A stretch of 63,863 bases of DNA, the filler included, from Chiloscyllium plagiosum (Eukaryota), in assembly GCF_004010195.1 (NCBI RefSeq). It is 7 parts of 7 records of this genome, joined end to end, with 100 filler letters (N's around TTAATTAATTAA, not from the genome) between each part and the next. Parts side by side here need not be neighbours in the genome. Positions count along the whole stretch, not along the records: positions 1 to 18,752 come from NC_057748.1; positions 18,853 to 49,509 come from NC_057757.1; positions 49,610 to 51,878 come from NW_025179341.1; positions 51,979 to 53,553 come from NW_025162370.1; positions 53,654 to 56,117 come from NW_025181379.1; positions 56,218 to 58,096 come from NW_025173499.1; 1 more part is not named here. The stretch is one strand, 5' to 3'. The position numbers and the translations under genes are program-made. Each line of letters begins with the position of its first letter. The stretch's first letter is position 1. Below are positions 7,990-57,275 of this stretch, piece after piece. The notes below the pieces were generated by a model. The model was not told the origin of the DNA. It did not search any database and saw only the letters and a list, made by a program, of their open reading frames with translations.

Positions 7990-8725
7990 TTAAAAATCAC
8001 ACAACACCAGGTTATAGTCCAACAGGTTTAATTGGAAGCACACTAGCTTTCGGAGCGACGCTCCTTCATCAGGTGGCAATGGAGAGCTCAATCCTAACAC
8101 AGAATTTATAGCAAAAATATACAGTGTGNNNNNNNNNGGTTTAATTGGAAGCACTAGCTTTCGGAGCGCCGCTCCTTCATCAGGTGGCAATGGAGAGCTC
8201 AATCCTAACACAGAATTTATAGCAAAAATATACAGTGTGGTGTAACTGAAATTATACATTGAAAAATTGATTGTCTGTTAAGCCTTTCATCTGTTAGAAT
8301 GCAGTGATAGTTTCACTTCTTTCATGTGTAAATCACAAAACCTTTTTTTAAAAAGTTGCATTCTCAGGTTAGTTGTTAACAATGGTGATAGCTAGACAAT
8401 ATGCTGAAGGTGTTAGCCCCCTGTGTTTTCTGTCTATGCCATGATATTTAGATTGATTCTAATCTAAAAAGTGAGATAACGGAGTTTTACATAAATTCAT
8501 GCAGTTTTTGAGCAAAGTACAATACAACCCTTGTTGGGGGTTGTGAGTGTGAGAAAGTATATGTGTGTGTGTGTATGTGTGTATAGGAGAGCCTGTGTGT
8601 GTGAGAGAGTGTGTGTGTGTGTAGTGAGTGCAGAGTGTCTTAAGTCTGTGACGGGGTGCATCTGAGAGTGTGGGAGTGTGTGTGTCTGTAAGGGTGTGTG
8701 TGGCTGTCTGTGTGCGCGTCTGTCC
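7990..8725. mobile_element. Penelope-associated shark repeat with hammerhead core and (GT)-rich tract
   Basis: Homologous to 57020-57275 in the opposite orientation. Carries CTGATGA-hairpin-GAAAGCT. Confidence 0.55.
8041..8075 (-). ncRNA. Minimal type I hammerhead ribozyme-like motif
   Basis: Minus strand: cac CTGATGA a GGAGC-gtc-GCTCC GAAA GC T A gtg. Intact core, 5-bp stem II, stem I cac/gtg, palindromic AGCT stem III. Repeated at 8152-8186 across a 9-N gap. Confidence 0.65.
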
Positions 8726-8754
8726 TTGTTCCTTCACAACATATTTCAAACAGT

Positions 8755-9310
8755 TTTTTTTTAAATTTCCAAAATATACTTTATTCATAAAAATATCTTT
8801 ATACGGACATTGTCACTGAAGTATTTCAGTTCTGTGCAGTAGCACATGAAGAAACAAACAAATATTGGAGTTTGACTCTCTCTAGGAAACAAACCAAAGG
8901 TATTGTATAAGATTATTTTTGCATATATTTGAGGCACCAGGAGGGTCTGATAACTGAACAGACCCCTATTTAACTTCAGGCTGAACGATTTCAGACAATG
9001 GTCTTTCCCCACCACCCCATGGCAACAGCTGCCCCAAGCTTTAGTGCGTCCCTCAGAACATAGTCCTAGACCTTGGAATGTGTCAGTCTGTAACACTCAC
9101 TCGGGGTTAACACCTTGCTCTGGAAGATCAACATGTTTTGGGCAGACCAAAGAGCATCTTTCACCGAGTTGATGGTACTCCAAGCACAGGCGAAGTTTAT
9201 CTCGGTGTGCGTCCCGGGGAACAGACCATAGAGCACAGAGTCCGGTGTCACGGAGCTACTCGGAATGAAGCTTGACAAAAACCAATGCATCTTTCTCCAG
9301 ATTTTCTTTC
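8755..9310 (-). mobile_element. Tx1/L1-clade LINE 3' fragment
   Basis: VLYGLFPGTHTEINFACAWSTINSVKDALWSAQN...ECYRLTHSKV. Confidence 0.65.
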
Positions 9311-9372
9311 AGTTATTGCTGCTTCTTTCAAACACTATCACAGATGCTCCTCTTTCTTCATTACCACAGATC

Positions 9373-10800
9373 CCTGAAGGTGGTAGGACAGGTTAGTAGT
9401 GTAGTTAAGGATGCATAATGGACACTTGCCTTTATTGTTCAGGGCTTAGATTATAAGAGCAGGGCAGTGATGTTGGAGTCGTACAGAACTTAGATCACAG
9501 CTGGAGTAGTGTGTGTGGTTCTGGTCCCCACACTATAGGAAGGATGTTTTGCACTGGAGGGGGTGCAGAGTAGATTCACCAGGATGTTGCCTGGGACGGA
9601 GTGATTTGGCGATGAAGAGAACTGGATAAGCTTGAGGTGTTTTCTTTGGAGCAGAGAAGGTTGAGGGGGAACCTGACAGCAGTGCATAAGATTATGAGAG
9701 GCGTGTTCCCCTTAGTTGAAGGGTCAATAACAAGGGCATCATTTTAAAGTGAAAGGCAGGTGGTTTAGAGGGGGCTTGAGAAAAAACATTTTCACCTAGA
9801 GGCTGATGGGGGTCTAGAGTGCACTGGAGAGTAGTTGAGGTGGGAAACCTCACAATCTTTAAAAAGTACTTGGAGGAGCATTTGAAGTGTCATAAACTTA
9901 AAACTATGGGCCTAGTGCTGGAAAATAGGGTTAGTGTAGGTAGAACTGTATTTTTGGCAGCACAGATACAATGGGTCAAAGGGGCTCTTCTGTACTGTAT
10001 AATCATATGATTCCATAATTCTAGATATGAGGTTACTCCAAATCACTAAAACTCAGTGTTTGGGGAATCAAAAAGACCATCAACCATTATCTGAAGAGAT
10101 CTGGAATAAAAGAAGGTGGACATGATTCAGGTCCATTGTATCCTGAAGGTGGATAGTGGTCAAGAAGGCATATGGTATGCTTGCCTTCATCGGACGGGGT
10201 ACTGAGTATAAGAGCTAGCAGGTCATGTTAGAATTATACAAGACTTTGGTTCGGCTGCATTTAGAATACCGTGTACAGTTCTGGTCACCACATTACCAAA
10301 AGGATGTGGACACTTTGGAGAGAAGGTTTATGAGGATGTTGTCTGGTATGGAAGGTGCGAGCTATGAAGAGAGGTTGAGTAGGTTAGGATTGGTTTCATT
10401 AGAAAAAAGGAGATTGAAGGGGGATCTGATTGAGGTCTACAAAATCATGAAGGGTATAGACAGAATGGATAGAGATAAGCTTTCTCACAGGGTGAGGGAT
10501 TCAATGAGAGGTCATGCTTTCAAGGTGAGAGGTGAAAAGCTTAAGGGGGATACATGCAGAAAGTACTTTATGCAGAGGATGGTAGGTGACTGGAATGCAT
10601 TGTCAGCAGAGATAATAGAGGCAGGCAGGGCAGATTCTTTCAAGGTACATCTGGACAGATGCATGAGTCTTTGGGAAACAGAGGGATACAGATGCTTAGG
10701 AATTGGGCAATAGGTTTAGACAGTGGATTTGGATCAGCTCAGGTTTGGCGGGCTAAAGAACCTGTTCCTGGGCTATAAATTTTTTTCTTTGTTCTTTGAT
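9373..10800 (+). mobile_element. Two adjacent CR1 LINE 3' fragments
   Basis: LYKTLVRLHLEYRVQFWSPHYQKD...RLKGDLIEVYKIMKG. Confidence 0.85.
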
Positions 10801-10863
10801 GCTACAGACATATAAAAAGTGAAGTTGCTATAGTCCCAGAGGACCATGGGCTGTTGTCTCATC

Positions 10864-10894
<31 letters not shown>

Positions 10895-11274
10895 TGACGG
10901 GGGATGGGGGTGGTTTAACCTGAGAGTCACCACAATTCCAGCGCGGGGAAAGGTTGAGAAGCAGAGTCCTTCATGGTAATCTCAGCCAATATGGGAATTG
11001 GACCACATAAAGCCATGGCTAGACCCCCATTCTGAGAAGTGCTTTTTGATTTGTGTGTGAAGAGGGATATGTTGGGTTTGAGGTGTTGCAATACTCAGAA
11101 CATGAGTGGCATGAAACGTGTCAAGATTATGAGCACAGATGCATGATCTTGCCAAAGCAGATGCTTGCCAGGGAGGTGACAGATAAGTCATTTGATAGAT
11201 GATGGATAAAAGATAGATAAAATTTGGAATATTAGATAGCAGTGTCATTAACTCCATGTAATCTAGGTTTTAAA

Positions 11275-12385
11275 AAAATTATTTGTGGGATGTGGGTGTT
11301 GCTGGCATTTATTGTCCATTCCTAGTTGTCCTCGAGAAGGCGGGGGTGAGCTATTTTCCTGAACCATTGCAGTTCACCTGCTGTGGGTTGACCCACAATG
11401 CCATTAGGGCAGGAGTTCTAGGATTTTGATCCAGTGACAGCGAAGTAACAGTGATATATTTCCAAGTCAGGATGGTGAGTGGCTTGGAGTGGAATTTGCA
11501 GGGGTTGGTATTCCCATGTACCTGCTGCTCTTATCCTTCTGTATAGAAGTGTTTGTGGGAGTGGAGGGTGCTGTCTAAGGATCTTTGATGAATTTCTGCA
11601 GTGCATCCTGTAGATAGTACACACTGCTGCTACTGAGTGTTGGGGATAGAGGAAGGGGAAGCTTGTGGATGTATGCCAATCAAGCGGGCTGCTTTGTCCT
11701 TGATGATGTCAAGCTTCTTGAGTGTTGTTGGGGCTACACCCATCTAGGCAAGTGTGGGAGTATTCCATCACACTCCTGACTCATGCCTTGTAGATAATGG
11801 ACAAGTTGTGGGGAGTCAGGAGGTGAGTTACTTGCCACAGCCTCTGACTTGGTCTTGTAGCCAACTGCGAGCTTGTTGCAATTCCAGTTGAGTTTCTGGT
11901 CAATGATAAGCCCCTAGGATGTTGATAGTGGGGGCGTCAGTCATAGTAACACCATTGAATGTCAAGGGACGGTAGTTAGATTGTCTCTTATTGGAGGTGG
12001 TCATTGTCTGGCATTTATGTGGTGTGAATGTTACTTGCCACTTGTCAGCCAAAGCCTGGATATTGTCCAGATTGTATTGCATTTGGACACGGACTGCTTC
12101 AGTATCTGAGGAATGGTGAATGGTGCTGAATATTGTACAATCTTCAATGAACGTCCCCACTTCTGACCTTACGATGCAGGGAAGGTCATTGAGGAAGCAG
12201 CTGAAGATGGTTGGGTCAAACCCTTGTGAGGAGTGCAGAGATATCCTGGAGCTGAGATGACCTGCCTCCAACAACCACAACCATGTTCCTATGTGCCAAG
12301 TACGATTCCAACCAGCAAACAGTTTGCCCCAATATCCATTGATTCCAGATTTGCCAGGGCTCTTTGATGCCTAACCGAGTTGAAT
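11275..12385 (-). mobile_element. L2/CR1-like LINE RT fragment and 3' end (second family)
   Basis: PTIFSCFLNDLP...FIEDCT...LDNIQALADKWQVTFTPHKC; 3' end shared with 27120-27480, 28300-29030, 32360-32690 and 38420-39030. Confidence 0.75.
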
Positions 12386-12689
12386 ATGGATTGGATCCAA
12401 TCAAGGTGACAGTGGAGATTGCGGGCTTGAGCTTGGAGCTTGTCTGCTCTGACCCACACCCCCCTCCCCCTTTAATTTTGTTTCTCTTTCACTTTCTTTT
12501 CCTCTTTCACTACTCCTTTTCTTAGTTTAATTCGACATACCTTCGACAAAGTGTGACTCCGTGCGGCGCAGAGGATTGTGAAGGAGGAGAGCAAGCCAGC
12601 ATGGGGGAGCCGAGTTCAATGTAGCAGCGAGAGAGGTCGCTGGTATCGAGGGTGGTCATCCCAAGCGATGACGAGAGCAGGAGCGGGCA

Positions 12690-12990
12690 GGAGGGGCAGG
12701 GAGGCTGAGATCGAACCCAGGGCGGGTGTGAGACTGAATCCAGAGTGGGGGGAGGGGTGAGTTTGAGCCGGGTTGGGGGATGGGGTGAGATCGAGCCCCG
12801 GGTGGGGTGGTGTGGGGGTGAGATCCAGCCCGGGGCAGAAGGTGGAGGGCAGAGGGGGTGGTGAGATTGAGCCCAGGGTGGGAGGAGATGGTGGGATCAT
12901 GCCGGGGGCGAGGAGTAGGGGGAATGGGATTGAGCCTGGGTTGAGGTACGGGTGAAATCGAGCCCGAGGCAGGGAGGGTGGTGAGATTCC
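12690..12990 (+). repeat. G-rich degenerate tandem array (~30-33-bp unit, core ggtgagatcgagccc)
   Basis: About nine visible units, running into an HE1 V-domain fragment at ~12990-13050. Confidence 0.7.
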
Positions 12991-13144
12991 AGTCTCAGGC
13001 AACTCTCTGTGTGGAGTTTGCACGTTCTCTCCCATGTCTGTGTGGGTTTCTGGCAGGGGAGGTGCTGAGTGTGTGGGGGAGGACCACCTGATGTTGTTGT
13101 GGGCCTGGTCAAAATGGCCATCAACAGATTTAGGCAATGGGTTG

Positions 13145-14599: not shown

Positions 14600-14836
14600 G
14601 TTTCAGTCCTGGTATGTCAAGGTGAAAAAGTGATTGGAACCAGATGGAACTCATTGATTATGAGATCCCTGATTGGGATTGGGCCAATCAGGGAGTTGTG
14701 GCTGACAGATATAAACAGAGGATTCAGAGAGTCTCCTGACTTCAGGGGACTGACTCTGAACTGGCTAGCCACGATCAGTGTACAGTGCATAGGGGGTGAC
14801 CTGGTGACAGGATATAGGCCTCTGTGCAGTTATTTT
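14600..14836 (+). mobile_element. Probable solo-LTR remnant with CCAAT and TATA boxes
   Basis: CCAAT 14684-14688 and TATAAA 14710-14715 in LTR-U3-like spacing. The LTR identity is inferred. Confidence 0.35.
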
Positions 14837-15394: not shown

Positions 15395-16489
15395 GTAAGT
15401 ATTGCATCTACCCAACTGGGTTACTGATCCAATTGCTTCATTACTTCTCCCCATCTTCTTACTGTCCGTTGCGCCCATGCATTTGTGAAAACATCTATTT
15501 ATTCAATCATTCATCAATTGGATCCCAATTTCTAAATCCGCTGGATTGCCACCACTGATTTATTGGATCCCAACAGCACTGTTCATGTGCCTTCAGCTCG
15601 AAGGCTGCAGTGCTTTAAGAAGTTGGCTCAAGGAAATTTGGGGGTGGACGATAAATGCTAGTCCAGCCAGTGATATGCGCATCCAACAAGTAAGTCGACA
15701 AAACTGTACCCATTGCATGAAAATTATAAAATAGGAAGAAAATTGGCCATGATCTAGATGCATGGCAGAGCAGCATTGATAGAGTCTGATAGAGTCATAG
15801 AGATGTACAGCACGGAAAAAGACTCTTCAAACCAACTCGTCCATGCTGATCAGATATCCTAAATTAATCCAGTCCTATTTGCCAGCATTTGGTCCATCTC
15901 CCTCTAAACTCTTTCTGATTCACCCATCCAGATACCTTTTAAATGTAATTATTCCTATTTCCAATGTTAATTAGATTATGGCCTCTGTCTTTCTTAGATC
16001 CCTGTCTTAATCTTTGGATCTAGCTATACTGTTAACACTGTTCATTGGTTCCCCTTAGAGTTGTAGCAATATTTCATAATGTTATGCGAGTTTAAAGACG
16101 AAATGCGCAATTTGAAAATGCTGCACAAATATGGTTGGCGTTTGCATGTTCACCTTCGGGAACATTGGGGGAGAGTAGGGAGGTGATCACCAAATGGTTG
16201 AACTATGTTTGAAAATATATAGACTCCTTTCCTTGGTCCTCAAGTGGAACTTGAAACCAAGATATTAGACTCATTAACTGAGACACAGTTCATGTATCTG
16301 AAGACCACCCTATGTTACAAGTGGGGAACTTAAAAGTTGCCCCTTAAGTCCCTTTTATATCTTTCTCACAAATCATCATGGCAAGTTGAGGGTGGATTTA
16401 TAATAAGGTAGGCAGAGACTACAGCCATGTCCCCGGTTTCAGATATTCTTGTCACCCTCTTAATGTTTACTTGTTTCTTCTGAATACAG

Positions 16490-16828
16490 ATAATTGCATC
16501 ATGGCACGGACTTCGTGGATAGCAGCGCTGTCTGGAGAGACAGTGAGCCTGGGATGTGAGATTCAAAATAGTTCAGATCTGCTGTACTGGTTTGTGCAAT
16601 TTCCCAGCCAGTCTCCAACTTCACTGTTATATCACCATCGCACCGGCATCACCGCCACTTACTTTAATGGTTTCGGGTCTCGTTTCTCTCCCTCGTTTGA
16701 TTCATCCACTCAAAGCTCTCAGCTAAGGATCACAAATGTCAGTGTTTCAGACACTGGGAACTACTACTGTGCTTTCAGAGTACACGGTGAGATGAGATTC
16801 GGGACAGGAACCATGCTAACAGTAACAG
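16490..16828 (+). CDS. Single-exon, germline-joined VJ-type Ig V domain (TCR-like, non-rearranging IgSF); gene truncated by the end of the segment
   Basis: GETVSLGC-x10-WFVQ...RFS...LRITNVSVSDTGNYYC-AFRVHGEMR-FGTGTMLTVT. Acceptor tacag at 16485-16489, phase-1 donor GTAAGA at 16829. No V-J intervening DNA. Confidence 0.9.
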
Positions 16829-17329
16829 GTAAGAAAGTGACCACTCTCTCACCTGAACACAGTTTGCTCTAAAAGATTAAAATCTCCGAGGAATGTAGAC
16901 TTGAGGTAGAGAGATCTTTGAGGTGTTACAAACAGGTCCAGAAGATAATCAAGGAGATTAAGAGAATGCTGGCCTTTATTATCTTCAGTACTAAAGGCGA
17001 GAAGGTATGTTTCAATTGTACAGAGCCTGGTTAGATCATACCTGGAATCACTGTGAGCTGTTCTGGGCGCTACACCTCAGAAAGGAGATATGGATCTCAG
17101 TGGGTGCGCAGGATCTATTTACCAAGCTTATCTCCAAGACCGAATTAAGTGGAGAGATTGCACTATTGTTATGTATTGACAAAATTGTGACAATTCAGTA
17201 GGAGGTCACTTAGCCCCCTGTCTCTGTACGGGCTCTCCAAATGAGCAAATCACTCGCTGCCATTCTCCCACCTTTTTCCTGTAACCCTGCACACTCTTCT
17301 TTTATATATAACCGTCTAATTCGAGATAA

Positions 17330-17545
17330 ACACCAAAAGAGCTGCAGATGCTGTAAATCAGAAACATAAACAGAAATCACTGGAAAAGCTCAGCGGGTCT
17401 GGCAGCATCTGTGGAGAGAAATCAGTTAACATTTCAGGGGGGTCAGTTCTGAGGAACGGTCACTCGATCGGAAACATCAACTTTGATTTCTCTCCGCAGA
17501 TGCTGCCAGACCTGCTGAGCTTTTCCAGCAATTTCTGCTTTTGTC
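17330..17545. mobile_element. Palindromic element (intronic) with hammerhead-like core
   Basis: Arms ctggaaaagctcagcgggtctggcagcatctg / cagatgctgccagacctgctgagcttttccag. Confidence 0.75.
17445..17482 (+). ncRNA. Minimal hammerhead ribozyme-like motif
   Basis: agtt CTGAGGA a CGGTC-actc-GATCG GAAA CA T C aact. Stem I agtt/aact. Stem III palindrome decayed from ACGT to ACAT. Confidence 0.5.
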
Positions 17546-18345: not shown

Positions 18346-18366
18346 AGGACAGGAAAACTTTCTGGC

Positions 18367-18752: not shown

Positions 18753-18852
18753 NNNNNNNNNNNNNNNNNNNNNNNNNNNNNNNNNNNNNNNNNNNNTTAA
18801 TTAATTAANNNNNNNNNNNNNNNNNNNNNNNNNNNNNNNNNNNNNNNNNNNN
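18753..18852. other. Artificial contig spacer
   Basis: 44 N + TTAATTAATTAA (stops in all six frames) + 44 N. Confidence 0.97.
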
Positions 18853-22578: not shown

Positions 22579-25500
22579 CTGAACAGAGGAAAGCCTTCAT
22601 CAAACAAAAAGGGAACCTGCTGTGGGGTTCACCACTGCCCGTGACTGCTCAGGATCCTGTGGTGAACTGTTAAATTCCAGGCTAACACGATCTTGGTCGT
22701 ACACCACCCTCCCCCTTCCTCCCCGATACTCCCAGCACCAAGCTCAGAAAGAGAGAATGTTTTGACACAATGAGCACAAGACAGAGCATAGGGATTTGCT
22801 GCAGTTTAATTCATGACTGGCCACTGATAAATTAAATTCTCTCTTCGAACTGCACGAACAATCCCTTCCTTCAGGGTGAGGTGGGACTGTTTGCATCAAA
22901 CTGCTTGTTTCCAGGTCAATCAAGCTGATGTTGAACATAGTAGCGTAGAATCACAATGGATGAGAAAAATAACAAATCTGGCTGGGATAGAAATCACATG
23001 CAGATACAATTTAATCGGTAGACTTGCGAGAACATTCCAACATCAATTCAGGCCCACGAGATCTCTTGCTTGGAGGTTCTGGTTTTAGGTTATTCATCTG
23101 TAGATCTGAAAGTAGAGGAAAACCATGGGTGAGCAATGGAGATGGAGCAAGGAGATACTGGTGTGCGAAAGCTTGGCTCAGTTTGTGAAACATTAGGAAG
23201 GCGGAGAGAGAGAGAGACAGAGAGACAGAGACAGAGTGAGGGGGAGAGGAGAAGAGAGAGAGACAGAGACAGAGGGAGAGACAGAGGGGGAGGGAGAGAC
23301 AGAGANNNNNNNNNNNNNNNNNNNNNNNNNNNNNNNNNNNNNNNNNNNNNNNNNNNNNNNNNNNNNNNNNNNNNNNNAGAGAAAGACAGTGGTGGGGGTT
23401 GGGGGGTGGGGGGGGGGGGAAGAGGTTGGGCTGTTTGATTTAGAAAAGAGCAGTTCAGATCAGGATGTGGGCTGGGAAGGCAATACAGTGGTCCCTGCAA
23501 TGGATGATCCTTTTGCTGATCAGGAAACTGCTCTTCAGTCTGCCTAAGGAGGCATAGAGTGACTCGCTCTCAATCATAAAAGTCTCTGACTTTTTCATAG
23601 ACATAGAGTCATAGACACTTCATGAAAAAGAACGGCTTGCGAAAGAGGGGAAGTAAACTGGATTTCTTCGGGTTTCAAATGTTTCTTACTGCACAGTCCC
23701 TGCTTCTTCAGAGATCCAATGTTTTCTGACTAAATGTAGAACATAGAACAATACAGCGCAGAACAGGCCCTTCGGCCCTCGATGTCGTGCCGACCTGTGA
23801 ACTATTCTCAGCTTGTCCCCCTACACTATCCCAAAATAATCCGTGTGCTTATCCAAGGATTGTTTAAATCTCCCTAATGTGGCTGAGTTAAGTACATTGG
23901 CAGGTAGGGTATTCCACACCCTTACCACTCTCTGAATGAAGAACTTGCCTCTGACATCTGTCTTAAATCTATCACCCCTCAATTTGTAGTTATGCCCCCT
24001 CGTACACANNNNNNNNNNNNNNNNNNNNNNNNNNNNNNNNNNNNNNNNNNNNNNNNNNNNNNNNNNNNNNNNNNNNNNNNNNNNNNNNNNNNNNNNNNNN
24101 NNNNNNNNNNNNNNNNNNNNNNNNNNNNNNNNNNNNNNNNNNNNNNNNNNNNNNNNNNNNNNNNNNNNNNNNNNNNNNNNNNNNNNNNNNNNNNNNNNNN
24201 NNNNNNNNNNNNNNNNNNNNNNNNNNNNNNNNNNNNNNNNNNNNNNNNNNNNNNNNNNNNNNNNNNNNNNNNNNNNNNNNNNNNNNNNNNNNNNNNNNNN
24301 NNNNNNNNNNNNNNNNNNNNNNNNNNNNNNNNNNNNNNNNNNNNNNNNNNNNNNNNNNNNNNNNNNNNNNNNNNNNNNNNNNNNNNNNNNNNNNNNNNNN
24401 NNNNNNNNNNNNNNNNNNNNNNNNNNNNNNNNNNNNNNNNNNNNNNNNNNNNNNNNNNNNNNNNNNNNNNNNNNNNNNNNNNNNNNNNNNNNNNNNNNNN
24501 NNNNNNNNAGATGGAGAGGTCAACTACAAGAGGGAGCTGATTCGAGGTGTGAGGATAAAGTTTAGGGAAGAAGTGAGGGGAAAGTTTTGCACACAGAGGG
24601 TGGTGGGTGCCAATGGAGGTGGTGAATGCAGGCATGCTAGTAATGATTAAGGTGTATCTTAATGGACGCATGAACATGGACAATAAGTAATGGATCTAAA
24701 TAAGGGTTAGGAATTGGTGCAGGATTGGTGGGCCTGTTCCTGTGTTGTATTGTATTATATCAGTAAATAATTACCCTAAGATCTTTCTGTTTGTGTGAAC
24801 TACCCAGTGTCCTGCCATTCATTAGAGACTCCTTCACCTTGCTTCTTTTTTCAGAATTGAAGTATATAAAATTTTGAGGGGCATGTCAGAGTCATTCCTG
24901 ATGAAGGGCTTTTGCCCAAAAAGTCAATTTTTCTGCTCCTCAGATGCTGCCTGACCTGCTGTGCTTTTCCAGAACCACTCTAATCTCCAGCATCGGCAGT
25001 ACCCACGTTCACCTGGATAGTCAGAGTCCCTTTCCCCAGAGTGGAAATATCAAATATGAGAGGACATACCTTTAAAGAGAAGGGTGCGAGGTAGTTTAAA
25101 AGACATGTGAGAAGGAAGGCTTTTGTTCAGAGTCATGCCTGGATCATGTGACCAGGCCAGGTGATAGAAAAAGATACAATAGCAAAGTTGAAGAGGCGTT
25201 TAGACAAATGCATGACCAGGCAGGAAATTGAGAGATACCAATCATGTACAGGCAGCTGGGATTAGATTAGAATGGCAAGATGGTCAGCATTACCCACCTT
25301 TAAGACTTTCATTAGAACTGACCTAATATCTCTTTCTAGGGTTTTGAGTCAGATTTATGGAGGCTTTTTCCCTACCTCCCAGGTATGCCCTCTCATATTT
25401 GGTATTTCAACTGTGGAGATGGAGAGGTCAACTACAAGAGGGAGCTGATTCGAGGTGTGAGGATAAAGTTTAGGGAAGAAGTGAGGGGAAAGTTTTGCAC

Positions 25501-29628: not shown

Positions 29629-29942
29629 GGGGAGGCGATGGGCCAATATATTGTCGCTGGACTGTTAATCCAGAGCCGCAGATAGTGTTCTGGGGAACTG
29701 AGTTCAAATCCTGCAATGGCAGATAGAGGAATTAGAATCCAATAAAGAATCTAGTGATGACCATGAATCCACTGCCACCTTTTGGGAGGATAAAAAACAT
29801 CTGGTTCACTTATGTCCTTTAGAGAAGGAAACTGCCATCCTTACCTGGTCCAGCCTACATGCCCAGACCCATAGCAATCTGGTTCACCCTTCACAGCAAT
29901 AAATGCTCACCTAGCCAGCGACACCCTCACTCCATGAATTAA
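29629..29942 (+). mobile_element. tRNA-derived SINE with a MetaSINE-like core
   Basis: B box gagttcaaatcc; core ctggttcacttatgtcctttagagaaggaaactgccatccttacctgg; tail shared with the L2-like LINE. Second copy at 37619-37945. Confidence 0.65.
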
Positions 29943-30046
29943 GGAAAGAAACAGTGACTGTATTTCAGCAAAGAGTCCTATTGACGGGTACGCTGAGGTT
30001 GGGGGTAAGGACTTATACGCTGCAACAGAATCAGAATCCTGCTTAC

Positions 30047-30406
30047 CTGAGTTCACAGTTAGCTGCAGCAAGGCACAGACAGTGGAACGTTGCTCTGCTC
30101 TCACGTAACAGGTATAGTTCCCAGAATCGGTGCTCCTCAGTTCTCGGAGCTGCAGAGTCACATTCCCCGTTTGATCCCAGTTAGGAGGGAGAGCTGTGCG
30201 GCCTTTAAAGCTGTCGTCCTGCTGTCCCTGCATCTCGCCCCCTCGCCTCTCTGCATGCACGATCAGGGGATAGTCACGATGTGCCTTTTGCCAGGACACC
30301 AACAGCTTATCGAGCTGCCCCTCGGGCCTAAAGTAACATGGCAAATAAATCGTGCCTCTCTGCATAGCCATCACGGGCTTTACATTTTCTTCACACTGTA
30401 TGGCCT
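30047..30406 (-). CDS. B7/butyrophilin-like IgV domain exon
   Basis: IYLPCYF...LLVSWQK...IVH...QQDDSFKGRTAL...GNVTLQLRELRSTDSGNYTCYV...LQLTV. 360 nt, phase 1-1, acceptor ttcctttgcag, donor GTAAGC. Confidence 0.92.
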
Positions 30407-30744
30407 CTGCAAAGGAAAGGAATAAATTCAGTCAATATTGAGGGTGCACTACTCTCAGTATAACTCCACACTATGAAAGCCCCACCTTCTTAATCTCGGC
30501 CTTTGCATGAGATATGCCGACCGTCAGAGTAAATCCATTAGCAATTGTTTCTCTCCAATGATAGAGCAGGACTATGGTCCTCTGGGACTGAGATGACTTT
30601 AGTTTTACCTTAACCCATGTCAGACTGCTTACCAATCTATCTGTCACCATGTCTAACTCTCGCTCAGGGTTTCTATCCAACTTGGTCTCACTTTCATCAA
30701 TTCCGTCTGACTCTCTACCTTCGCGCTGTTTCTCCATCAGCCTT

Positions 30745-34200: not shown

Positions 34201-34432
34201 CCGATGACTTCTTTCACATTAACACAAACGCCTGTGGTTTGCAAAGGAAACCAGACAAGTCTGCGTGTGCTCTGACAGGCAGTTTGTAAATGAGGCAGAC
34301 CGAGGAAGGGGGAAAAGATCCCCACATGGAACAAAGTGTGGCTATTTGCCTGTGATGTGGAAAATACCAGCTCATCACATTCCCAGGCTGGGAGAGTGAG
34401 AGAATGGGGACGGTGGGGTCTGGAAATGACAC

Positions 34433-35300
34433 CAGGGATGTGGGGAGAAAGCGGGGCAGTGGGATTAATTTGAGATAGGTGCAGGGATGTGGGGAGAGAT
34501 CTGGGTAGTGGGATTAATTTGGAATTTATGCAGGGATATGGGGAGGAAGCCGGGCAGTGGGATTAATTTGGGTTTGATGCAGGACTATGGGAGAGAGTGG
34601 GACAGTGGGTTTAATTTGGGATTGCTACAGAGATGTAGGGAAAGGGTGGGGCAGTGGGATTAATTTGGGATAAATGCAGAGATGTGGAGGGATTGTGGGG
34701 CAGTGGGATTATTTTGGGACAAGTGCAGGGGTGTGCGGAGAGAACTGGGCAGTGGGATTAATCTGGGATTGATACAGAGATGTGGGGAGACTGTGGGGCA
34801 GTGGGATTAGTTTGGGGATTCCTACAGGACTATGGGGCAAGAGCAGGGCAGTGGAATTAATTTGGGATAGATACAGCGATGTGGGTAGAGAGAGGGGCCG
34901 TGAGATTAATTTTGGATTGATGCAGGAATGTGGGGAGATCCTGGGGCAGTGGGATTAATTTGGGATTAATGTGGGGAGAAAGTGGGGCAGTGGGATTAGT
35001 TTGGTGATTGGTACAGGACTATAGGGAGAAAGTGGGGCAGTAGGATTAATTTGGGACAGATGTAGTGATGTGGGGTGAGAGCAAGGCAGTTGGATTAATT
35101 TCGGGATTGATACAGGGCTATGAGAGAGCTCTAGGCAATGGGATTAGTTTGGAATTGATGCAGGGTACAGGAGAGTGTTGGATAGTTGGATGTTTGGGGA
35201 TTGATACAGGGCTGTGGAAGAGTACGGGGTAGGGAAGATTAGGTTAGGATTGATACAGGGCTATGGGGCAAGAGTGGGGCAGTGGGATTAGTTTGGGAAT
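34433..35300 (+). repeat. G-rich minisatellite, ~49-bp unit, ~17-18 copies
   Basis: Recurring gggcagtgggattaatttgggattgatacagggatgtggggagag. Confidence 0.9.
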
Positions 35301-35729
35301 TTTTACATGTAATATCCTCCAATGTTACTGAGCCTATGTTTAAATAGCCTGCTGAGTCTAACAGTTGGGCTGGACCGGGAAATATGTTGCTGTGTTATTT
35401 GATAGCCCCCAGTATCCCGGGATACTGATGTAACTGCTTCAGAATATCCTGAAAATGGGGTCAATGAGTGTTTCTCCATGGACATAGGTTGGTGGGGGAG
35501 GGTGAGGATGCGGGATGGGGTGGGATGTTTATGCTCAGGCCTGCTCCTCGGATGCTGCCTGACCTGTTGTGCTTTTTCAGCGCCACTCTAGTCTAAACTC
35601 TGAGTGTTTCTTGTTTGTGAAGCTGATTAGAAAAGAAGTTGAAATGCTCCTTTTGCAAATGGTGCTGATAATTTCCATTGAGCAGAGATAAATTGGAGAT
35701 GCTTTCTGAACTGTGTAACCACATGAACT

Positions 35730-36285
35730 GCACACACGCACATGCACACACACACACACGCACGCACGCTCACACACACTCATACACATGCATGCATGCA
35801 CTCACACACGCACATACTCACTCATACACATGCACGTACGCACACACACATGCACGCATGCACACACACTCAAACTCACACACATGCGTGCGCACACACA
35901 CATACCATCACACATGCTCACACACTCACACAAACACAAACATACATTCACACACACTCACACATACAAACACACACCCACATTCACACACACACTCTCA
36001 CACACATGCATGAACACACTCACACGTGCACATTGACACACAAACAGACTCACACACACACATTCACACACACTCTCACACAAACACACTCATATGCATA
36101 CACACGCATTGTCACACCCACGTGCACACATACACTTTCACATACTCACACACATGCATGCACACACACACGCATGCTCACACATACACACACACACACA
36201 CTCATGCACATATTCATACACACACTCACACGGACACATAAATTCACACCCAGACATACACAATCACGCACTCGCACACACACAA
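35730..36285. repeat. Degenerate (CA)n microsatellite
   Basis: Visible directly in the sequence. Confidence 0.95.
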
Positions 36286-36639
36286 ACTCGAATTGTTTGA
36301 CCATATTTTTGCATTTATGATCCTTCCCCATATCTAAACAACAATCAGATCTCTCTGACTGTATATCTCTCATCACTTTTGAAGGCAGCTGTGTTGTGGC
36401 AGATGTAAATCTTTTGTGTCTCACTGTCCAGCCGCTGTGTATCAGGAAGTGAGGGGGGGAGGGGGCTGTGTTTGTAATGAGGGGAGATGCTCCCAATTCT
36501 GACTCCGGAACACCATGGTGAAAACTGCTGGCATTGGGAGGCTGTACTGCTGGAGGTGCAGGGAATCATAACGGAACTTTGAGAGATTAGAGCTGCACAA
36601 AGGCACTTCTGTTTGCAGAAAGCTGTAAATGCTGGATAT

Positions 36640-47133: not shown

Positions 47134-47168
47134 GGTCCTGAAGAAGGGTTACACCCGAAACGTTGACT
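47134..47168 (+). ncRNA. Minimal type I hammerhead ribozyme-like motif (best-preserved copy)
   Basis: ggtc CTGAAGA a GGGT-tac-ACCC GAAA CG T T gact. Intact core, stem I gtc/gac, palindromic AACGTT. Confidence 0.65.
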
Positions 47169-49509: not shown

Positions 49510-49609
49510 NNNNNNNNNNNNNNNNNNNNNNNNNNNNNNNNNNNNNNNNNNNNTTAATTAATTAANNNNNNNNNNNNNNNNNNNNNNNNNNNNNNNNNNN
49601 NNNNNNNNN
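49510..49609. other. Artificial contig spacer
   Basis: 44 N + TTAATTAATTAA + 44 N. Confidence 0.97.
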
Positions 49610-50203
49610 AACAATGACATAAATTAGAGAATGACATCACACAAAATACGCAAAGTATTTTTGATCACGTTAAATATAATGAACAGAATTTCCATGGCTG
49701 TTCACCGCTCCTGTAACACTTTAGAACTCTGCAAAGATAATAATAATTATTTATTATAATTTGTCCAAAATTGGGATGTGATGTGGCAGTCTGTGTGACC
49801 AGCAGCACTTGCACCTAAGGGTTATGAACATGGAAATGAGCTCATTATATTCAGATTACTCTTGTCACAAGTATCAATAGATGGTCTTAAGTGAGAGACA
49901 AACTCTGAAAGAAAGGTCATTCCATGGGTTACATGATGGTATCTTCGATGATTTTACTTTTTTCACAGGTTTCACTTGTTACAAAGCCAGTGTTCTTTAG
50001 GAATAATTACACAGGGTATGTTATAGGTAATCACAAATGCTTTCACAGATCAAAATACATCAACAATAGTAAGCATCGTTTCAACAATTGTTGGAGTTGC
50101 CATTTTGAAGGTGGTGTCTTCACCCTGTGAAGGAGTAATCTGAAGATTGGCTGTTTGTATCATAAAAAGGCATTTTTCATTGACTTTGATTTTTGTTTCA
50201 TAG

Positions 50204-50512
50204 AAGATACCGAGTGCCACCCTAACATCGTTAAAATCCTCCCACCACCAGTAGAACAAGTCTTACTGGAGGCGACGGTGACGTTAACCTGCGTTGTGTC
50301 CAATCTTCCTTCTGGAGTCAACGTGACCTGGAAACAAGAAAATAAGCCTCTGAAATCAGAGATTGCTGAGCAGCCTGGACAGAATCCCGACAGCGTGATC
50401 AGCAAATTAGACATTTCTGCTGAAGCCTGGCTGAGTGGCGTTACTTTTGAATGTGTGATGTACCATCAGAATCTACCGACTCCGCTGAGAGACTCCATCC
50501 ACAAGGAGAAAG
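50204..50512 (+). CDS. IGHM: IgM heavy chain Cmu3 exon (copy 1)
   Basis: [22 protein letters not shown]...[10 protein letters not shown]...[12 protein letters not shown], typical of shark mu; tttcatag acceptor, GTGAG donor, phase 1-1. Confidence 0.92.
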
Positions 50513-50967
50513 GTGAGCGGTGAGACTAAAACACAAAGGATCCCATGTGTAATCCAGATCCAGTTACATCAATGGCTGGCTTTGATTGGGAATGAACCAA
50601 CACCGTTGGGAGCATTAATGATGCATCTGAAGGCAGGATAGCTCAGTAGAATTAAGAAAAAGATGGACCAAAGGATATTGTATTCTTATTATGTCAGGTA
50701 AACTGGGAAGAAGCCTGGGTTGTGACGTCACCATCAGCAATGACAAATGGACAGAATGCCCTCGTTGTGGGCTGGAAACATGGAGGCAACTTTCACATTA
50801 AACTTTCCTTTTTTTTACTGAACAGTATGTGTACCATACTGATCCTTTAAAAAAACGAAAGTGAATAAATCCCAAATTAAACATGGCGTATTTTAATATT
50901 TAGTGAAGTCGTGATATTGGTTCAGGATGTTTTTGGTTGATTTATATTTGTCTCAAATATTCTGCAG

Positions 50968-51359
50968 TGATTAATCCGATGGAACCATCAGTGTCGGTCC
51001 TCCTGCCACCAACAGAAGAAATCTCCGCTCAGAGGTTTCTCTCCCTCACCTGTTTAGTGAGAGGTTTCTCCCCCCGAGAGATCTTCGTCAAGTGGACAAA
51101 CAATGACAAGCCGGTGAATCCCAGTAACTACAAGAACACTGAGGTCATGGCGGAGAGCGACAACACCTCCTTCTTCATGTACAGCCTGTTATCCCTTACA
51201 GCGGAGGAGTGGGCCAGCGGTGCTTCTTACTCCTGTGTGGTGGGACATGAAGCGATTCCATTGAAGATCATCAACAGAACAGTCGATAAATCCAGCGGTA
51301 AATCGAGTTTCATAAACATTTCACTTGTACTGATGGACACTGTTAATTCATGTCAATAA
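50968..51359 (+). CDS. IGHM: IgM Cmu4 plus secretory tailpiece (copy 1)
   Basis: [17 protein letters not shown]...[17 protein letters not shown]...[14 protein letters not shown]. Internal membrane-form donor G|GTAAAT at 51298. AATAAA at 51355-51360. Confidence 0.95.
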
Positions 51360-51878
51360 AAATCTCAAAGTTGCATTTAATAATTCAACAGAAGTAATGA
51401 AGTTTTTTTTTCCTCCAGCTGTGAGTTAAATACTGAATTAGTTGTTTCCCACTCTGACTTACATTCCATCTGTGTAGTTAACGTGGATTCTTCACAGGTC
51501 TAGGACGAGTGTCTTGTGCAGTTAATGTTCTCTGTTCAGATACACCCTCGGTCAGAGATAGAGTAAAGCTCACTCATTGCAGGATTCCGCCAAGTAACAT
51601 TTCCATCCTAAATCCCTCTGTGACAAAATCTGACAATGTCCATTTTATGTCAAGGGTAGGGCACGAGTTTTGAACTTAGTGTTTTTGATTCCCCCGATTG
51701 GACATTCTTACAAAATCCATGTCAGTTTTAAACTGCCAAATTACACCAATTGGAAATGTAAATTTAAGACACTTTAAAATTAAATTTGATTGCAACATAC
51801 CAATCGTAAAGAGTGCAGAACAGTTTGAATGTAACCTTTGTTTCAGGGGAACTGCCAGGGATCTTGCGCCAGCGCATG

Positions 51879-51978
51879 NNNNNNNNNNNNNNNNNNNNNN
51901 NNNNNNNNNNNNNNNNNNNNNNTTAATTAATTAANNNNNNNNNNNNNNNNNNNNNNNNNNNNNNNNNNNNNNNNNNNN
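51879..51978. other. Artificial contig spacer
   Basis: 44 N + TTAATTAATTAA + 44 N. Confidence 0.97.
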
Positions 51979-52862
51979 GAATAACTGGGTACCAAGGACT
52001 GACCCCTGTAGCATGACAATTGGTAACTACCTGCCATTCAGAAAAAGACTTGTTGTGTCTGTCCTGCCAACCAGTTCCCAATCCATGTCAGTACATGACC
52101 CCCAATCCTCTTGTTCGTTGGGATTTCCCTGATTCAGTTGAATATATTTCATCCTGTCAGATCTTTGCTTTCCTCAGGTCCTGTTCAATGTCACCCCTGC
52201 ATTTTCTATCCTCCTCTCAGCTTTCTGCAGGTTTGATCTCCAGATAACCAACATCACCTTCCCTGTTTAGTCTTCCCTACTCTGCTGCCTTTTGACATCC
52301 CAGGCTGAGAGTCTATATCTGGGAGTCCCACACATACTCATTGTGGGAAAAGATTCTGAACAATCTTTGTCTCATCCTTCGAGGCCTCCCACTGCCCTGA
52401 CCCTGATTTTCCATCATGTACTTGGTTTCAGTCCACTTTTGCTAAATCACTGCACAGTTCAGTAAGATATTTCATTCCCAAATGAAATTTTTTACACTTG
52501 CTCCATTGTTCTCCATTTCCATCCGTACTCTCAATCTCACTGAGTTCTGATCACTGTCACTGAAATGCTCCCCCATTGATAGCCCTTCCAGCTGCCCATA
52601 TTCATTCCATAAACAATGGTCCAAAACTGTCCTTTCTCTTTCACCATCACCTTCTCAGGGGCAATTAGGAATGGGCAATGAATGCTGGACCTGGCAGTGA
52701 CTCTCATATCCCAAGAAGCCATTTAAACAATACCTGTTCTTTTGTCGGGGTTTATTCTGTATTGACCACAAATGTTCAATAAGATTGTATTGCCAGTGAA
52801 TATACTGAGAGTCAAAATCCATTTGTTTGGCAGGGATTAAAATTGTTTCTCTTGTCTTTCAG

Positions 52863-53186
52863 GCCGTGAGAACTCCCAGCTCAAGCTGACCCTGCTGCCC
52901 ACCTCCCCGGAGCAGGTCAATGTCAAGGGCACTGCCACCCTGGTGTGCCTTGCCAATCACTTCTATCCCGATGAGCTGGAGGTGCAGTGGAAGAAGGACG
53001 GTGCAGTCATTTCGGACGGGGTTCAGACCAGCAACTACCTGCGAGCTTCGGACAGCACCTACAGTGTCAGCAGCCTGCTGACCCTCTCTGGGTCTGACTG
53101 GGCGTCCAACGCTCGCTTCTCCTGTGCCCTCACCCACGTGACCCTCCCGTCTCAGAAAGAACATCAGGAGATCAGAATGTGTGTAG
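52863..53186 (+). pseudogene. IGKC: Ig kappa (shark type III / NS4-like) light-chain C exon with a frameshift near the 3' end
   Basis: KGTATLVCLANHFYPDE...QTSNYLRASDSTYS...NARFSCALTH. The ancestral end LRKNIRRSECV* (TAG 53184-53186) is out of frame after ~53150. Confidence 0.8.
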
Positions 53187-53553
53187 ATTGTTTGAGACAG
53201 TCCACAGAGGAGACACAACTTTACTTAGAACAGGGCTGAGCTGGCAGGACAAAGGTCATTGTTAGCACTGAATTTCAACTCTCTTCCTTCTCAGAACTGC
53301 TCAGAGATATGTCTGAGGTTTGGATGTTGAAGTAGGTCACTGCGACAATGTCGAGAGACTTTACGCTATGTCAAACCTCATGCTGTCCTTGTCCGGGGAG
53401 TGTTTGATGGGGAAGTGTTGACTGTATGTCGAGTAAAATCTCTTGAAGTTGCTGAAGACTGTCAGCTACACAAAACAATGTGACCCTTAGAAGTCTCTGC
53501 TTCAGTAAACCAGACCTTTCGGGCGGCACGGTGATGCAGTGGTTAGCACTGCT

Positions 53554-53653
53554 NNNNNNNNNNNNNNNNNNNNNNNNNNNNNNNNNNNNNNNNNNNNTTA
53601 ATTAATTAANNNNNNNNNNNNNNNNNNNNNNNNNNNNNNNNNNNNNNNNNNNN
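53554..53653. other. Artificial contig spacer
   Basis: 44 N + TTAATTAATTAA + 44 N. Confidence 0.97.
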
Positions 53654-53713
53654 TTGTGGTGTACCATCAGAATCTACCGACTCCGCTGAGAGACTCCATC
53701 CACAAGGACAAAG
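53654..53713 (+). CDS. IGHM: IgM Cmu3 exon, 3' end only (copy 2)
   Basis: [19 protein letters not shown]|GTGAG, nearly identical to copy 1. Confidence 0.85.
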
Positions 53714-54169
53714 GTGAGCGGTGAGATTAAAGCACAAACGATCTCATGTGTAATCCAGATCCAGTTACATCAATGGGCAGGCTTTGATTGGTAGTGAACA
53801 AACACTGTTGGGAGCATTAATGATGCATCTGAAGGCAGGAGAGCTAAGTAGCTGATTCAGAAAAAGATGGACCAAAGGATATTGTATTCTGATTAAGTCA
53901 GATAAGGTGGGAAGAAGCCAGGGTTGTGACGCCACCATCAGCAATGACAAATGGACAGAATGCTCTTGTTGTGGGCTGGAAACTTGGAGACAACGTTCAT
54001 ATTAAACTTTCCTTTTTTTACTGAACAGTATGCGTACCATTCTGCTCCTTTAGAAAATGAAAGTGAATAAATCCCAAATTAAACATTGCGTATTTTAATA
54101 TTTAGTGAAATTGTGATATCGGTTCAGGATTTTTTTGGTTGATTTATATTTGTCTCAAAGATTCTGCAG

Positions 54170-54561
54170 TGATTAATCCGCTGGAGCCATTAGTGTCGGT
54201 CCTCCTGCCACCAACAGAAGAAATCTCCGCTCAGAGGTTTCTCTACCTCACCTGTTTAGTGAGAGGTTTCTCCCCCCGAAAGATCTTCGTCAAGTGGACA
54301 AACAATGACAAGCCGGTGAATCCCAGTCACTACAAGAACACCGAGGTGATGGCGGAGAGTGACAACACCTCCTTCTTCATCTACAGCCTGTTATCCATTA
54401 CAGCGGAGGAGTGGGCCAGCGGTGCTTCTTACTCCTGTGTGGTGGGACATGAAGCGATTCCATTGAATATCATCAACAGAACAGTCGATAAATCCAGCGG
54501 TAAACCGAGTTTTGTAAACATTTCACTTGCACTGATGGACACAGTTAATTCATGTCAATAA
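54170..54561 (+). CDS. IGHM: IgM Cmu4 plus secretory tailpiece (copy 2)
   Basis: Open frame ending [20 protein letters not shown]. Intron and 3' flank are colinear with copy 1. Confidence 0.93.
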
Positions 54562-56117
54562 AAATCTCAAAGTTGCATTTAATAATTCAACAGAAGTAAT
54601 GAAGTGTTTTTTTTTCCTCCAGCTGTGTGTTAAATACTGAATTAGTTGTTTCTCACTCTGACTTACATTCCATCTGTGTAGTTAAAGTGGATTATTAACA
54701 GATCTGTAACAAGTGTCTTGTGCAGTTAATCTTCCCTGATCAGATACACCCTGGGTCAGAGACAGAGTAAAGATCACTCATTGCAGGATTCCACCAAGTA
54801 CCTTATCCATCCTAAATCCCTCTGTGACAAAATCTGACAATGTCCATTTTATGTCAAGGGTAGGGCACGAGTTTTGAACTTGGTGTTTTTGATTCCCCCA
54901 ATTGGACATTCTGACAAAATTCATGTCAGTTTTAAACTGCCAAATTGCACCAATTGGAAATGTAAATTTAAGACACTTTAAAATTAAATTTGATTGGAAC
55001 ATACCAATCGTAAAGAGTGCGGGACAGTTTGAATGTAACCTTTGTTTCTGGGGAACTGCCAGGGATCTTGCGCCAGCGCATGAGTTGACAGAATGCATCT
55101 TCACTTTCACACCAAAGAGAATCAACAGATAAGTTGTTGTGGAGCAGAGGGGAGGGGAACGATGAATGGTCTGTCCTCTTGCTCCCTGTGCAGAGTTTTC
55201 ATGGTGGATGTCCTCTGTAATGTCACCCAGTTGCGAACAGGAACAGTCAGCTTCTGGCTTACTGTCCAAAGATTTTACATTTCCATGCAAAACAATACCT
55301 TTGAAGCATGTTAGACACGCTTGGCTCTGTTAAAAAATGATAACATTGATTCCCATAATCCAAAACTGGTGTTTGCATCGTCCCAGTTTGAATTCCATAC
55401 TTTTGTCTCGGTTTTCTGGAGCACATGGGATCAATTCTGGTATTTGAATACCTGATATCATTTTGTTTCACATACAAAACACAAGTAGACATTTTCTAAT
55501 AAACATATTCAGAAATGTTATCTCTGGGGCAGTGGGGATTTGAACTCACGCCTTTTCTCTCAGAGACAGAAGTTCTATCACTGCAACAGAGGAGTTGCTC
55601 ATAAAATGCGTATCTCTCCACGACGATGGGAAATGTTTCCTGCAACACCAAGGTGAAATCTAATTATGGGAAATGCATTAAAATTAAAACAATAAATTAG
55701 AATAATGAAAATTGCAGTCTGGTATAAGAACAGATACAGAGAGATGATCGCAAATACACACGTAATGACACATATATGGGCTCTCATCTCAAGACACATA
55801 TTTCTGTGCACACTCAAATGTGCATATAGATAAGATGTCACACACGCATACTCGCACAGAGCCACACATGCAAGTGGTACTTGAACACTCAGCTAAGCTC
55901 ATACAAAAACTCACATACACCGAAAGAAAATCATTTGCACAAATGAACAGGAGTACTCACATATAACCATGAGAAACATCGACACACAGTAACACACAAA
56001 TGGGCATGAATACATATACATTCATACAGCACAATGCGTACAGACATACACGTATGAACACACAGACACAAATTCCGAAAAAGGTCCTCCCACATGTCAA
56101 CTCACACAGGCACGTAA

Positions 56118-56217
56118 NNNNNNNNNNNNNNNNNNNNNNNNNNNNNNNNNNNNNNNNNNNNTTAATTAATTAANNNNNNNNNNNNNNNNNNNNNNNNNNN
56201 NNNNNNNNNNNNNNNNN
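56118..56217. other. Artificial contig spacer
   Basis: 44 N + TTAATTAATTAA + 44 N. Confidence 0.97.
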
Positions 56218-56626
56218 TCTGGTCTCTGCTTCCCTCTGTCACTCTCACCCTCTCCCTGCCCCTCTCTGTCTCTCCCTCAATCATGTCTTTCTTCTTCTCT
56301 GTTTCTTTCATTCTGTTTCTCTCTCTGAGATGTGTCCAGCTGGGCTCGGGAGGTTTGTCAAATTTATTTTTTGATATTAAATCTTGCAGTCATTCTTCAC
56401 ACATGGCCATGGAGTGTAAGAGGAAAACTTGAGGCCTTCTGTGAGCGGTGGACACCACAGGGACTGGAATGTGTCGTGGACAGTGACAATCCCAGCATGG
56501 GGTAATTTGTTCAGTTTCATTTATATATTACTGTGTTTGTATCAGTTATAAGGAGGTGTGTCTATTATTATGTATAACATATAATTATGAATGTATCAGT
56601 ACAGGAGGTGGTGCTGTGTGTATTGA

Positions 56627-56654
56627 GGTTTTTGTACGGCTCTATATCACTGTG
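56627..56654 (-). other. Recombination signal sequence, 12-bp spacer
   Basis: CACAGTG atatagagccgt ACAAAAACC: consensus heptamer and nonamer. Confidence 0.97.
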
Positions 56655-56936
56655 TAGAGGGTAGCTGTTATACTGCTGACAGTAATAGTCAGCGACATCA
56701 TCATTCTGAACGTTGCTGATTGTCAGGGTGAAACTGGTCCCTGATCCACTGCCGGTGAATCGATCGGAGACTCCTGTGAATCGAGTTGCTGTATAATAGA
56801 CCAGGAGAGAGGGTTTCTGACCTTCTCGCTGCTGGTACCAGCTAACCCACTTGCTAACAGATTTACTGGCCGTACAGGTGATGGTTGAAGTCTGGCCCAG
56901 TCCCACTGACAGCACCGGGGGAGACTGGGTCATGAT
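56655..56936 (-). pseudogene. IGKV: Unrearranged Ig kappa V segment; open frame, but leader and canonical acceptor not found
   Basis: [21 protein letters not shown]...[13 protein letters not shown]...[13 protein letters not shown]...[11 protein letters not shown] followed by a 12-RSS. Confidence 0.8.
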
Positions 56937-57019
56937 GTGGCACAGACAGCCTCACAGGGAGTTAACACCTTCAATACCTTATCTGAGCCGACATGACACC
57001 AATTGTTAAAGAGAATGTA

Positions 57020-57275
57020 ACTTTTAAAAAACGTTTTACAATTTACATATGAAAGAACTGAAACCAACATGGTCATTCTAAAAGGTGAGCGACTTAACAA
57101 ACAATCAGGTCTTTTTCAATATATAATTCCAGTTACATCACACTGGAAACTTTTGCTATAAATTCAGTGTCTTATAATCTTATTCTCCATAACCACCTGA
57201 TGAAGGAGCAGTGCTCTGAAAGCTAGTGCTTCCAAATAAACCTGTTGGACTATAACCTGGTGTTGTGTGATTTAT
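57020..57275. mobile_element. Penelope-associated repeat (same family as 7990-8725)
   Basis: aaacctgttggactataacctggtgttgtgtgatttt terminus shared with 7990-8030 in reverse complement. Confidence 0.6.
57194..57228 (+). ncRNA. Minimal hammerhead ribozyme-like motif
   Basis: cac CTGATGA a GGAGC-agt-GCTCT GAAA GC T A gtg. Confidence 0.55.

Follow-up and report, generated by a model that had tools for sequence, protein, structure and literature searches.

The window, by which we mean the whole 63,863-nucleotide stretch of DNA from the carpet shark Chiloscyllium plagiosum (assembly GCF_004010195.1) analysed here, very probably contains minimal hammerhead ribozyme motifs of type I, of which four are intact and at least four decayed. 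Each lies in a short repeat, likely the 5′-truncated pseudo-long terminal repeat (pLTR) of a Penelope-like element (PLE). Any cleavage by the motifs would be weak, dimeric or protein-helped, by analogy with the weak or protein-assisted cleavage described for other hammerheads (PMC4209133, PMC6765202, PMC11167929).

In the explanation we favour, autonomous elements encoding reverse transcriptase (RT) and GIY-YIG endonuclease, located elsewhere in the genome, would have copied their own RNA by target-primed reverse transcription. This would usually have halted early, leaving only the element ends, and the window copies would be the dead ends of such insertions. Pairing would have been selected in the active master elements, the single copies now decaying, often at CpG. 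Stem III would form only between two copies, through its palindrome, and the insertion template would likely have been a read-through or tandem RNA, internally primed, as in the PLE of the anole.

Hammerhead motifs of the window

We scanned the whole window with a strict descriptor, using 40 dinucleotide shuffles as the control, and obtained four matches in the window and none in any of the shuffles. Two of them are on the minus strand at 8041-8075 (predicted cut after 8044; covariance model E 7.6e-9) and 8152-8186 (after 8155; E 4.7e-10), and two on the plus strand at 47134-47168 (after 47164; E 2.2e-9) and 57194-57228 (after 57225; E 7.9e-8), the latter followed by AATAAA at 57235-57240. The motif at 47134 belongs to the ACGU group (family E) and the other three to the AGCU family (family C). 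The motifs at 8041, 47134 and 57194, which an initial annotation of this DNA had placed at exactly these positions, show the full core, the extra A, a stem II of 4-5 bp, GAAA, a 4-nt palindrome, UH and a stem I of 3-4 bp; the cuts it had predicted after 47164 and after 8044 on the minus strand are correct on hammerhead numbering. The 8152 motif sits in a near-duplicate of the 8041 copy (102/104 nt; one substitution and one 2-nt indel), separated from it by a gap of nine Ns (8129-8137), and may be a real tandem or an assembly overlap.

The CUGANGA...GAAA...UH core with type I topology is present in the four intact copies and in the copy at 17445. The extra nucleotide after A9 is an A in all nine parsed copies; it had been read as a viroid-like trait, but it is standard in the minimal hammerheads of metazoan PLEs (PMC4209133). 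The pair 10.1-11.1 is G-C in the copies at 8041, 8152, 47134, 404 and 379, G-U in that at 57194, whose stem II 3′ strand is GCTCT and not GCTCC, and C-G in the decayed copy at 17445. Concerning stem III, the palindrome of the intact copies is AGCU in three and ACGU in one, with no helix III loop, and it is gone in the copies at 17445, 404 and 24898.

Relatives of the motif were sought in metagenome loci with a pattern derived from the window, in which the stem III letters were left free as [CG][CG] and stem I was not required. This gave 62 matches in 61 loci; stem III is palindromic in 56 of the matches and in 38 of the 44 sequence clusters (binomial p 4.7e-7), and a stem I of at least 3 bp is found in 19/38 palindromic vs 0/6 non-palindromic clusters. 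A covariance model (R1) was built from 19 loci of other organisms and contains no window sequence; its loci were fetched with the window-derived pattern and its rows chosen for pairing, so the search with it is partly circular, which lessens its weight for the reading proposed here. R1 recovers eight copies in the window at E≤0.0015, the next of the 33 matches having E 0.86. A covariance-model scan was the check that the initial annotation had called for, and the eight copies are the four intact ones and four decayed ones.

The decayed copies are located at 17445-17482 on the plus strand (copy D; E 4.3e-4), at 398-437 on the plus and 343-382 on the minus strand (both copy A; E≤0.0015), and at 24892-24931 on the plus strand (copy G; E 0.0015). 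Those previously noted near 401-432 and 24898 are supported in this way, and the one at 343-382 had been missed. The copy proposed at 1049 has only E 9.8 (copy B, a heavily decayed hammerhead near 1047), which is not significant alone; we accept it because of its common downstream box and inverted arm. The copy at 17445-17482 had been presented as one of the showcase motifs: its core and its stems of 5 and 4 bp are present, but stem III reads ACAT and the 10.1-11.1 pair is C-G, hence we class it as decayed. Stem II of this copy (17453-17470) is fully paired yet closes with C-G where the opposite arm points to a different pair, reflecting either an unknown subfamily or a chance double change.

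Based on these results, there is next to no probability that a short, degenerate descriptor picked up the motifs by chance. The loose pattern alone does average 15 matches in shuffles, and an Rfam scan of the window returned no hammerhead family among 16 matches at E≤10; on the other side stand the empty strict scans of the shuffles, the fixed position of the motif within repeat families, the E-values down to 1e-10 with a model from outside loci and the enrichment of palindromes in the metagenome clusters. The shuffles, the palindrome enrichment and the R1 E-values together refute chance matching.

The stems had also been said to differ in sequence with their pairing kept. The between-family changes named in support are present, but no more than about three independent families lie behind them, which is not enough to claim significance: in the window alignment (MAFFT, partly out of register) there are 16 both-side changes vs 8.4 in shuffles. 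In the outside alignment, whose rows were chosen for pairing, 89% of the cells are paired and there are 43 both-side changes. In family C reads and contigs (reads filtered at 85% identity), only loop II and C11.1 vary among the variant rows listed inside the motif; C11.1 lies in a CpG and its change gives G-U, and most reads vary in the bases directly upstream of stem I. This pattern is compatible with constraint acting on the master elements. By nearest-neighbour energies, dimers other than the double-hammerhead fold are preferred; the energy model omits core contacts, and we draw no inference from it.

Repeat groups, insertion anatomy and relatives elsewhere

The copies fall into two unrelated sequence groups, one with an ACGU palindrome and one downstream box, the other with an AGCU palindrome and a different box; all repeat pieces combined make up about 3% of the window. 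The ACGU group contains copies A (299-531), B (945-1140), D (17326-17542), E (47134) and G (24892), as well as motif-less pieces at 1-188 and 35530. Its common box lies about 17-25 nt downstream of the motif, and a diverged form of it follows the 47134 motif. The AGCU group, family C, has two 5′-truncated elements which have about 250 nt of upstream sequence in common. The element at 7988-8441 on the minus strand has a tail-less 3′ end, lies beside a (CA)n-rich tract and is likely the 3′ non-coding end of a Neptune-type PLE. That at 56938-57278 on the plus strand is 76-84% identical to it and adjoins a V exon on the opposite strand. Family C records either end at 7985-7990 or run on from there into a common tail.

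Inverted 5′-truncated copies are found in four members of the ACGU group (1-188, 299-481, 978-1122 and 17364-17544), and in copies A and D the terminal extension, or tail, is on one arm only. Copy A is a fold-back insertion with two outward-facing decayed hammerheads, a tail on the plus arm only and a 14-bp target duplication at 289/532. In its centre, 21 nt (380-399) lie outside both arms and contain a short direct repeat, possibly filler from a strand switch. Copy D is a fold-back with its decayed hammerhead on the tail-less arm, its tail on the minus arm and a target duplication of 12 bp with one mismatch (17314 and 17543). Copy G is a single end piece on the plus strand (24892-25019) with a weak, candidate target duplication of 9 bp at 24885/25020; it begins about 4 nt 5′ of the core, as do both arms of A. 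Copy B is an old fold-back, the piece at 1-188 is a fold-back cut off downstream of the hammerhead position, and a short plus-strand fragment (35530-35590) retains only the downstream box. Insertions of endonuclease-bearing (EN+) PLEs are recognised in the literature by one-sided tails, inverted copies and short target duplications (PMC8557442, PMC3846280), and the presence of these features here supports PLE insertion.

The same short and fold-back copies could be independent non-autonomous elements, non-LTR retrozymes or elements resembling miniature inverted-repeat transposable elements (MITEs), that spread via ribozyme-cut circular RNAs. The copies are short (90-340 nt) and non-coding, some have target duplications, a distance of 111 nt separates two of the family C motifs, and tandem retrozymes are described in one chondrichthyan genome (10.64898/2026.07.22.740005). 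The window, however, has no tandem array except the pair across the N gap; its copies vary in length, in the position of their centre and in the arm on which the tail sits; none is a canonical hammerhead with tertiary loops (no Rfam match); and an inverted copy with a one-sided tail is the PLE pattern cited above. We therefore regard such independent elements as quite improbable, and retain truncated PLE ends as the reading of these repeats.

Protein evidence for PLEs beside the motif comes from the metagenome loci. Seven of the 61 loci match PLE RT or endonuclease proteins at E≤1e-4, and the Pfam domains GIY-YIG or RVT_1 are found in 3 of the 24 open reading frames (ORFs) chosen for scanning. 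The marine loci L010 and L022 match family C in the hammerhead over 43 nt at 86-91% identity, and the likewise marine locus L020 has the family C downstream box in common; this likeness could reflect deep conservation, convergence or horizontal transfer. None of the metagenome loci is recognisable as shark DNA by blastn, and the family C pattern has no matches in viral contigs. In L022, the ORF next to the motif resembling that of family C retrieves two homologous proteins (P0001 and P0002) with PF26215, one also with RVT_1, and both have a CX4CXXC linker. A CX2-5CxxC linker before GIY-YIG is a mark of Neptune and Nematis (PMC8557442), and family C is likely of Neptune type.

A peptide read from the repeat of copy D is found in predicted isoforms of Stegostoma tigrinum and C. 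plagiosum (P0003 and P0004), with weak E-values and over 14-15 residues only. These two proteins are NCBI-predicted CRAT-like and GLE1 isoforms of the two carpet sharks. Like the immunoglobulin exons of the window, the peptide points to a cartilaginous fish as host. At 17487-17545 the ACGU-group box is preceded by a pyrimidine tract and CAG, which suggests that the box was exonised through a 3′ splice site. Peptides of ACGU-group repeats, used as queries for a longer PLE ORF, gave no match at E≤0.001, and three weak peptide matches considered as PLE proteins were rejected as host isoforms. The initial view that PLE-type minimal hammerheads occur in several shark repeat families gains support from the insertion anatomy, the related motifs beside RT/GIY-YIG ORFs elsewhere and the carpet-shark peptide.

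Besides the partial circularity of R1, several results weigh against this reading. In predicted folds in context, the pairing probability of stem I is near zero in the intact copies, and fold-back copy A buries its own motif. Target duplications were not found for the other five of the eight copies tested, and random flank pairs equal the duplication scores of A and D in 5/300 trials each and that of G in 24/300. Concerning coding sequence, a tblastn search of the window with PLE proteins gave no significant match, GIY-YIG is absent from the 120 window reading frames scanned, and a C-terminal endonuclease relic upstream of three intact loci is not significant, its best score being equalled in 12/200 shuffles. 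Because the window is without PLE coding sequence, its copies are tied only indirectly to an autonomous element of the shark; absence of an RT and GIY-YIG ORF from the window copies is expected, as these are truncated ends.

The poly(A) site of the AGCU family

Family C DNA is present in sequencing runs of four organism labels. The RNA data come from a related species (organism B) and a single run, single-cell and primed on poly(A), of which 2% gave 3846 family C reads; only 141 of these are at ≥99% identity, so the reads derive from other family members. Duplicates were not collapsed, and transcripts of the element were pooled with host transcripts ending in a copy. Loose ends in poly(T) number 1262 in all (1704 first mates), with 522 at 8012, 439 at 8015 and 301 at 8138. 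Sense transcripts end 12-15 nt past an ATTAAA/AATAAA hexamer and ahead of a GU-rich stretch. On the minus strand the feature spans 8012-8032: the signal at 8032-8027 reads ATTAAA, where other copies have AATAAA, and the addition sites fall at 8015 and 8012, on evidence at the level of the family. Poly(A) addition takes place 29-32 nt downstream of the predicted cut of the AGCU family and is preceded by an A(A/U)UAAA signal. No genomic A run is present at this site in the window copies; genomic copies that end in A runs there may be the source of the loose ends. In the ACGU group no comparable poly(A) signal is found near the motif.

Read depth falls only from 1408 in the bin up to the predicted cut to 1252 in the following one. 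Among the rows listed for the poly(A) library, RNA ends do not accumulate at the predicted cut, a further point on the negative side of the PLE hammerhead reading. Because depth barely falls across the cut and ends do not pile up there, much of the captured RNA must be uncut; the missing ends do not refute cleavage, because a poly(A) library would lose both products. Family C genomic records extend at least 25 nt past the poly(A) site, and since copies reach past it, the insertion template was likely a read-through RNA.

An additional role of the AGCU hammerhead, which we consider unlikely, is that of a tail-removing switch, whose cut, some 10 nt upstream of the poly(A) signal, would strip the tail from element or host transcripts. 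In its wider and equally doubtful form, the AGCU terminal repeat would be a combined hammerhead and poly(A) cassette; cleavage triggered by dimerisation or by a protein would turn a tailed mRNA tail-less, and dispersed copies would give shark genes poly(A) sites with an off switch. The poly(T) loose ends, with their upstream hexamer, downstream GU-rich stretch and lack of a genomic A run in the window copies, are consistent with such a switch, and there is a mammalian precedent in Clec2 (PMC6765202). The reads, however, are from one run and one sample of a related species, a few loci may supply most of them, the drop in depth across the cut is small, and the ACGU group is without the signal. 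Cleavage published for PLE minimal hammerheads is also weak, and the cross-taxon signal is not strand-specific. A general link between PLE hammerheads and poly(A) signals across taxa was itself rejected: the signal is above shuffles (7/18; 12/37), but it is nearly as frequent in antisense (6/18; 9/37).

What PLE hammerheads do in vivo was still described as a mystery in 2020 by a review (PMC7761336). In the AGCU family, polyadenylation directly downstream of the predicted cut offers a concrete candidate role, in tail removal or 3′-end control. It also suggests that retrotransposition uses a template other than the polyadenylated RNA end; both points are based on one sequencing run.

Other window features and known systems

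Identical spacers of 100 bp, each made of 12 fixed letters between two runs of 44 N, are found at 18753-18852, 49510-49609, 51879-51978, 53554-53653, 56118-56217 and 58097-58196. They join separate assembly pieces, so neighbourhood across them is unreliable. Immunoglobulin-domain exons, both V-set and C1-set, are located on the plus strand at 16390-16869, 50131-50520, 50907-51356, 52841-53236, 54109-54558 and 61924-62283 and on the minus strand at 29910-30431 and 56571-56951; one C1-set exon is closest to IgM constant regions, and a light-chain-like V has a recombination signal with a 12-bp spacer at 56654 on the minus strand. A 49-bp minisatellite and a long GT-rich tract occupy 34369-35307 and 35724-36320. 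RT fragments (Pfam RVT_1) at 2293-2586, 7222-7704 and 11903-12370, all on the minus strand, and many copies of another LINE-like 3′ end (repeat families D4-D19) have no match to PLE proteins. Both may be CR1/L2-like.

Our literature search, with Repbase, Dfam and subscription papers outside it, found no report of PLE hammerheads in sharks, nor of poly(A) sites next to the hammerheads of PLEs. The covered parts of PMC2377424, PMC3846280 and PMC8557442 hold no passage on polyadenylation; a figure legend of PMC8557442 mentions poly(A) tails of a Chlamys element. As regards the class of motif, only the host lineage is added here, PLE minimal hammerheads having been published for fishes, coelacanth, frog and reptiles. 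Every named feature of the motif is already in Cervera & de la Peña 2014 (PMC4209133), who describe, for vertebrate genomes, the palindrome, G10.1-C11.1 and the additional nucleotide, and also the occurrence of several families, of copies that stand alone and of pairs on opposite strands. Like the metazoan PLE motifs of that study, those of the window have a type I core, an unpaired nucleotide between 9 and 10.1, G10.1-C11.1, a palindromic 15.2-16.2, a short helix I and several families per genome, and are mostly solo copies with some opposite-strand pairs 100-700 bp apart. They differ in their host, a cartilaginous fish (no shark is named in the sections and supplement files covered), and in helix II, which is 4-5 bp long vs 7-8 bp in Schistosoma.

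Insertions of EN+ PLEs consist of a pLTR with an adjacent inverted 5′-truncated copy, an optional tail of 30-40 bp and a short target site duplication (Craig et al. 2021, PMC8557442; Arkhipova et al. 2013, PMC3846280). The shark fold-backs resemble them in the tail on one arm, the duplications of 9-14 bp and the optional tail of family C, but the shark units are only 90-450 nt long and have no ORF. In PAc, the Poseidon element of Anolis (Frangieh et al. 2024, PMC11167929), the hammerhead likewise lies in the pLTR upstream of the element 3′ ends, and as here no RNA-seq ends are found at the cut site, two alternative 3′ ends defining the tail. The PAc hammerhead has been shown to be protein-assisted and dispensable for insertion in vitro, whereas the shark motifs are known here from their sequence; unlike family C, PAc has no poly(A) site in the covered passages.

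Non-LTR retrozymes (Li et al. 2026, 10.64898/2026.07.22.740005; PMC7761336) are similarly non-coding, hammerhead-bearing and related to the pLTR, and occur in one chondrichthyan genome; the chondrichthyan families of that preprint could overlap with those of the window. Retrozymes are tandem units each with a hammerhead, whereas the window copies are solo or inverted, with one adjacent pair across an N gap. In the hammerhead of the mammalian Clec2 3′ untranslated region (PMC6765202), the cut site lies upstream of the polyadenylation signal, as in family C; the Clec2 hammerhead is discontinuous, domesticated and active, and the shark motif is a minimal, repeat-borne, putative ribozyme.

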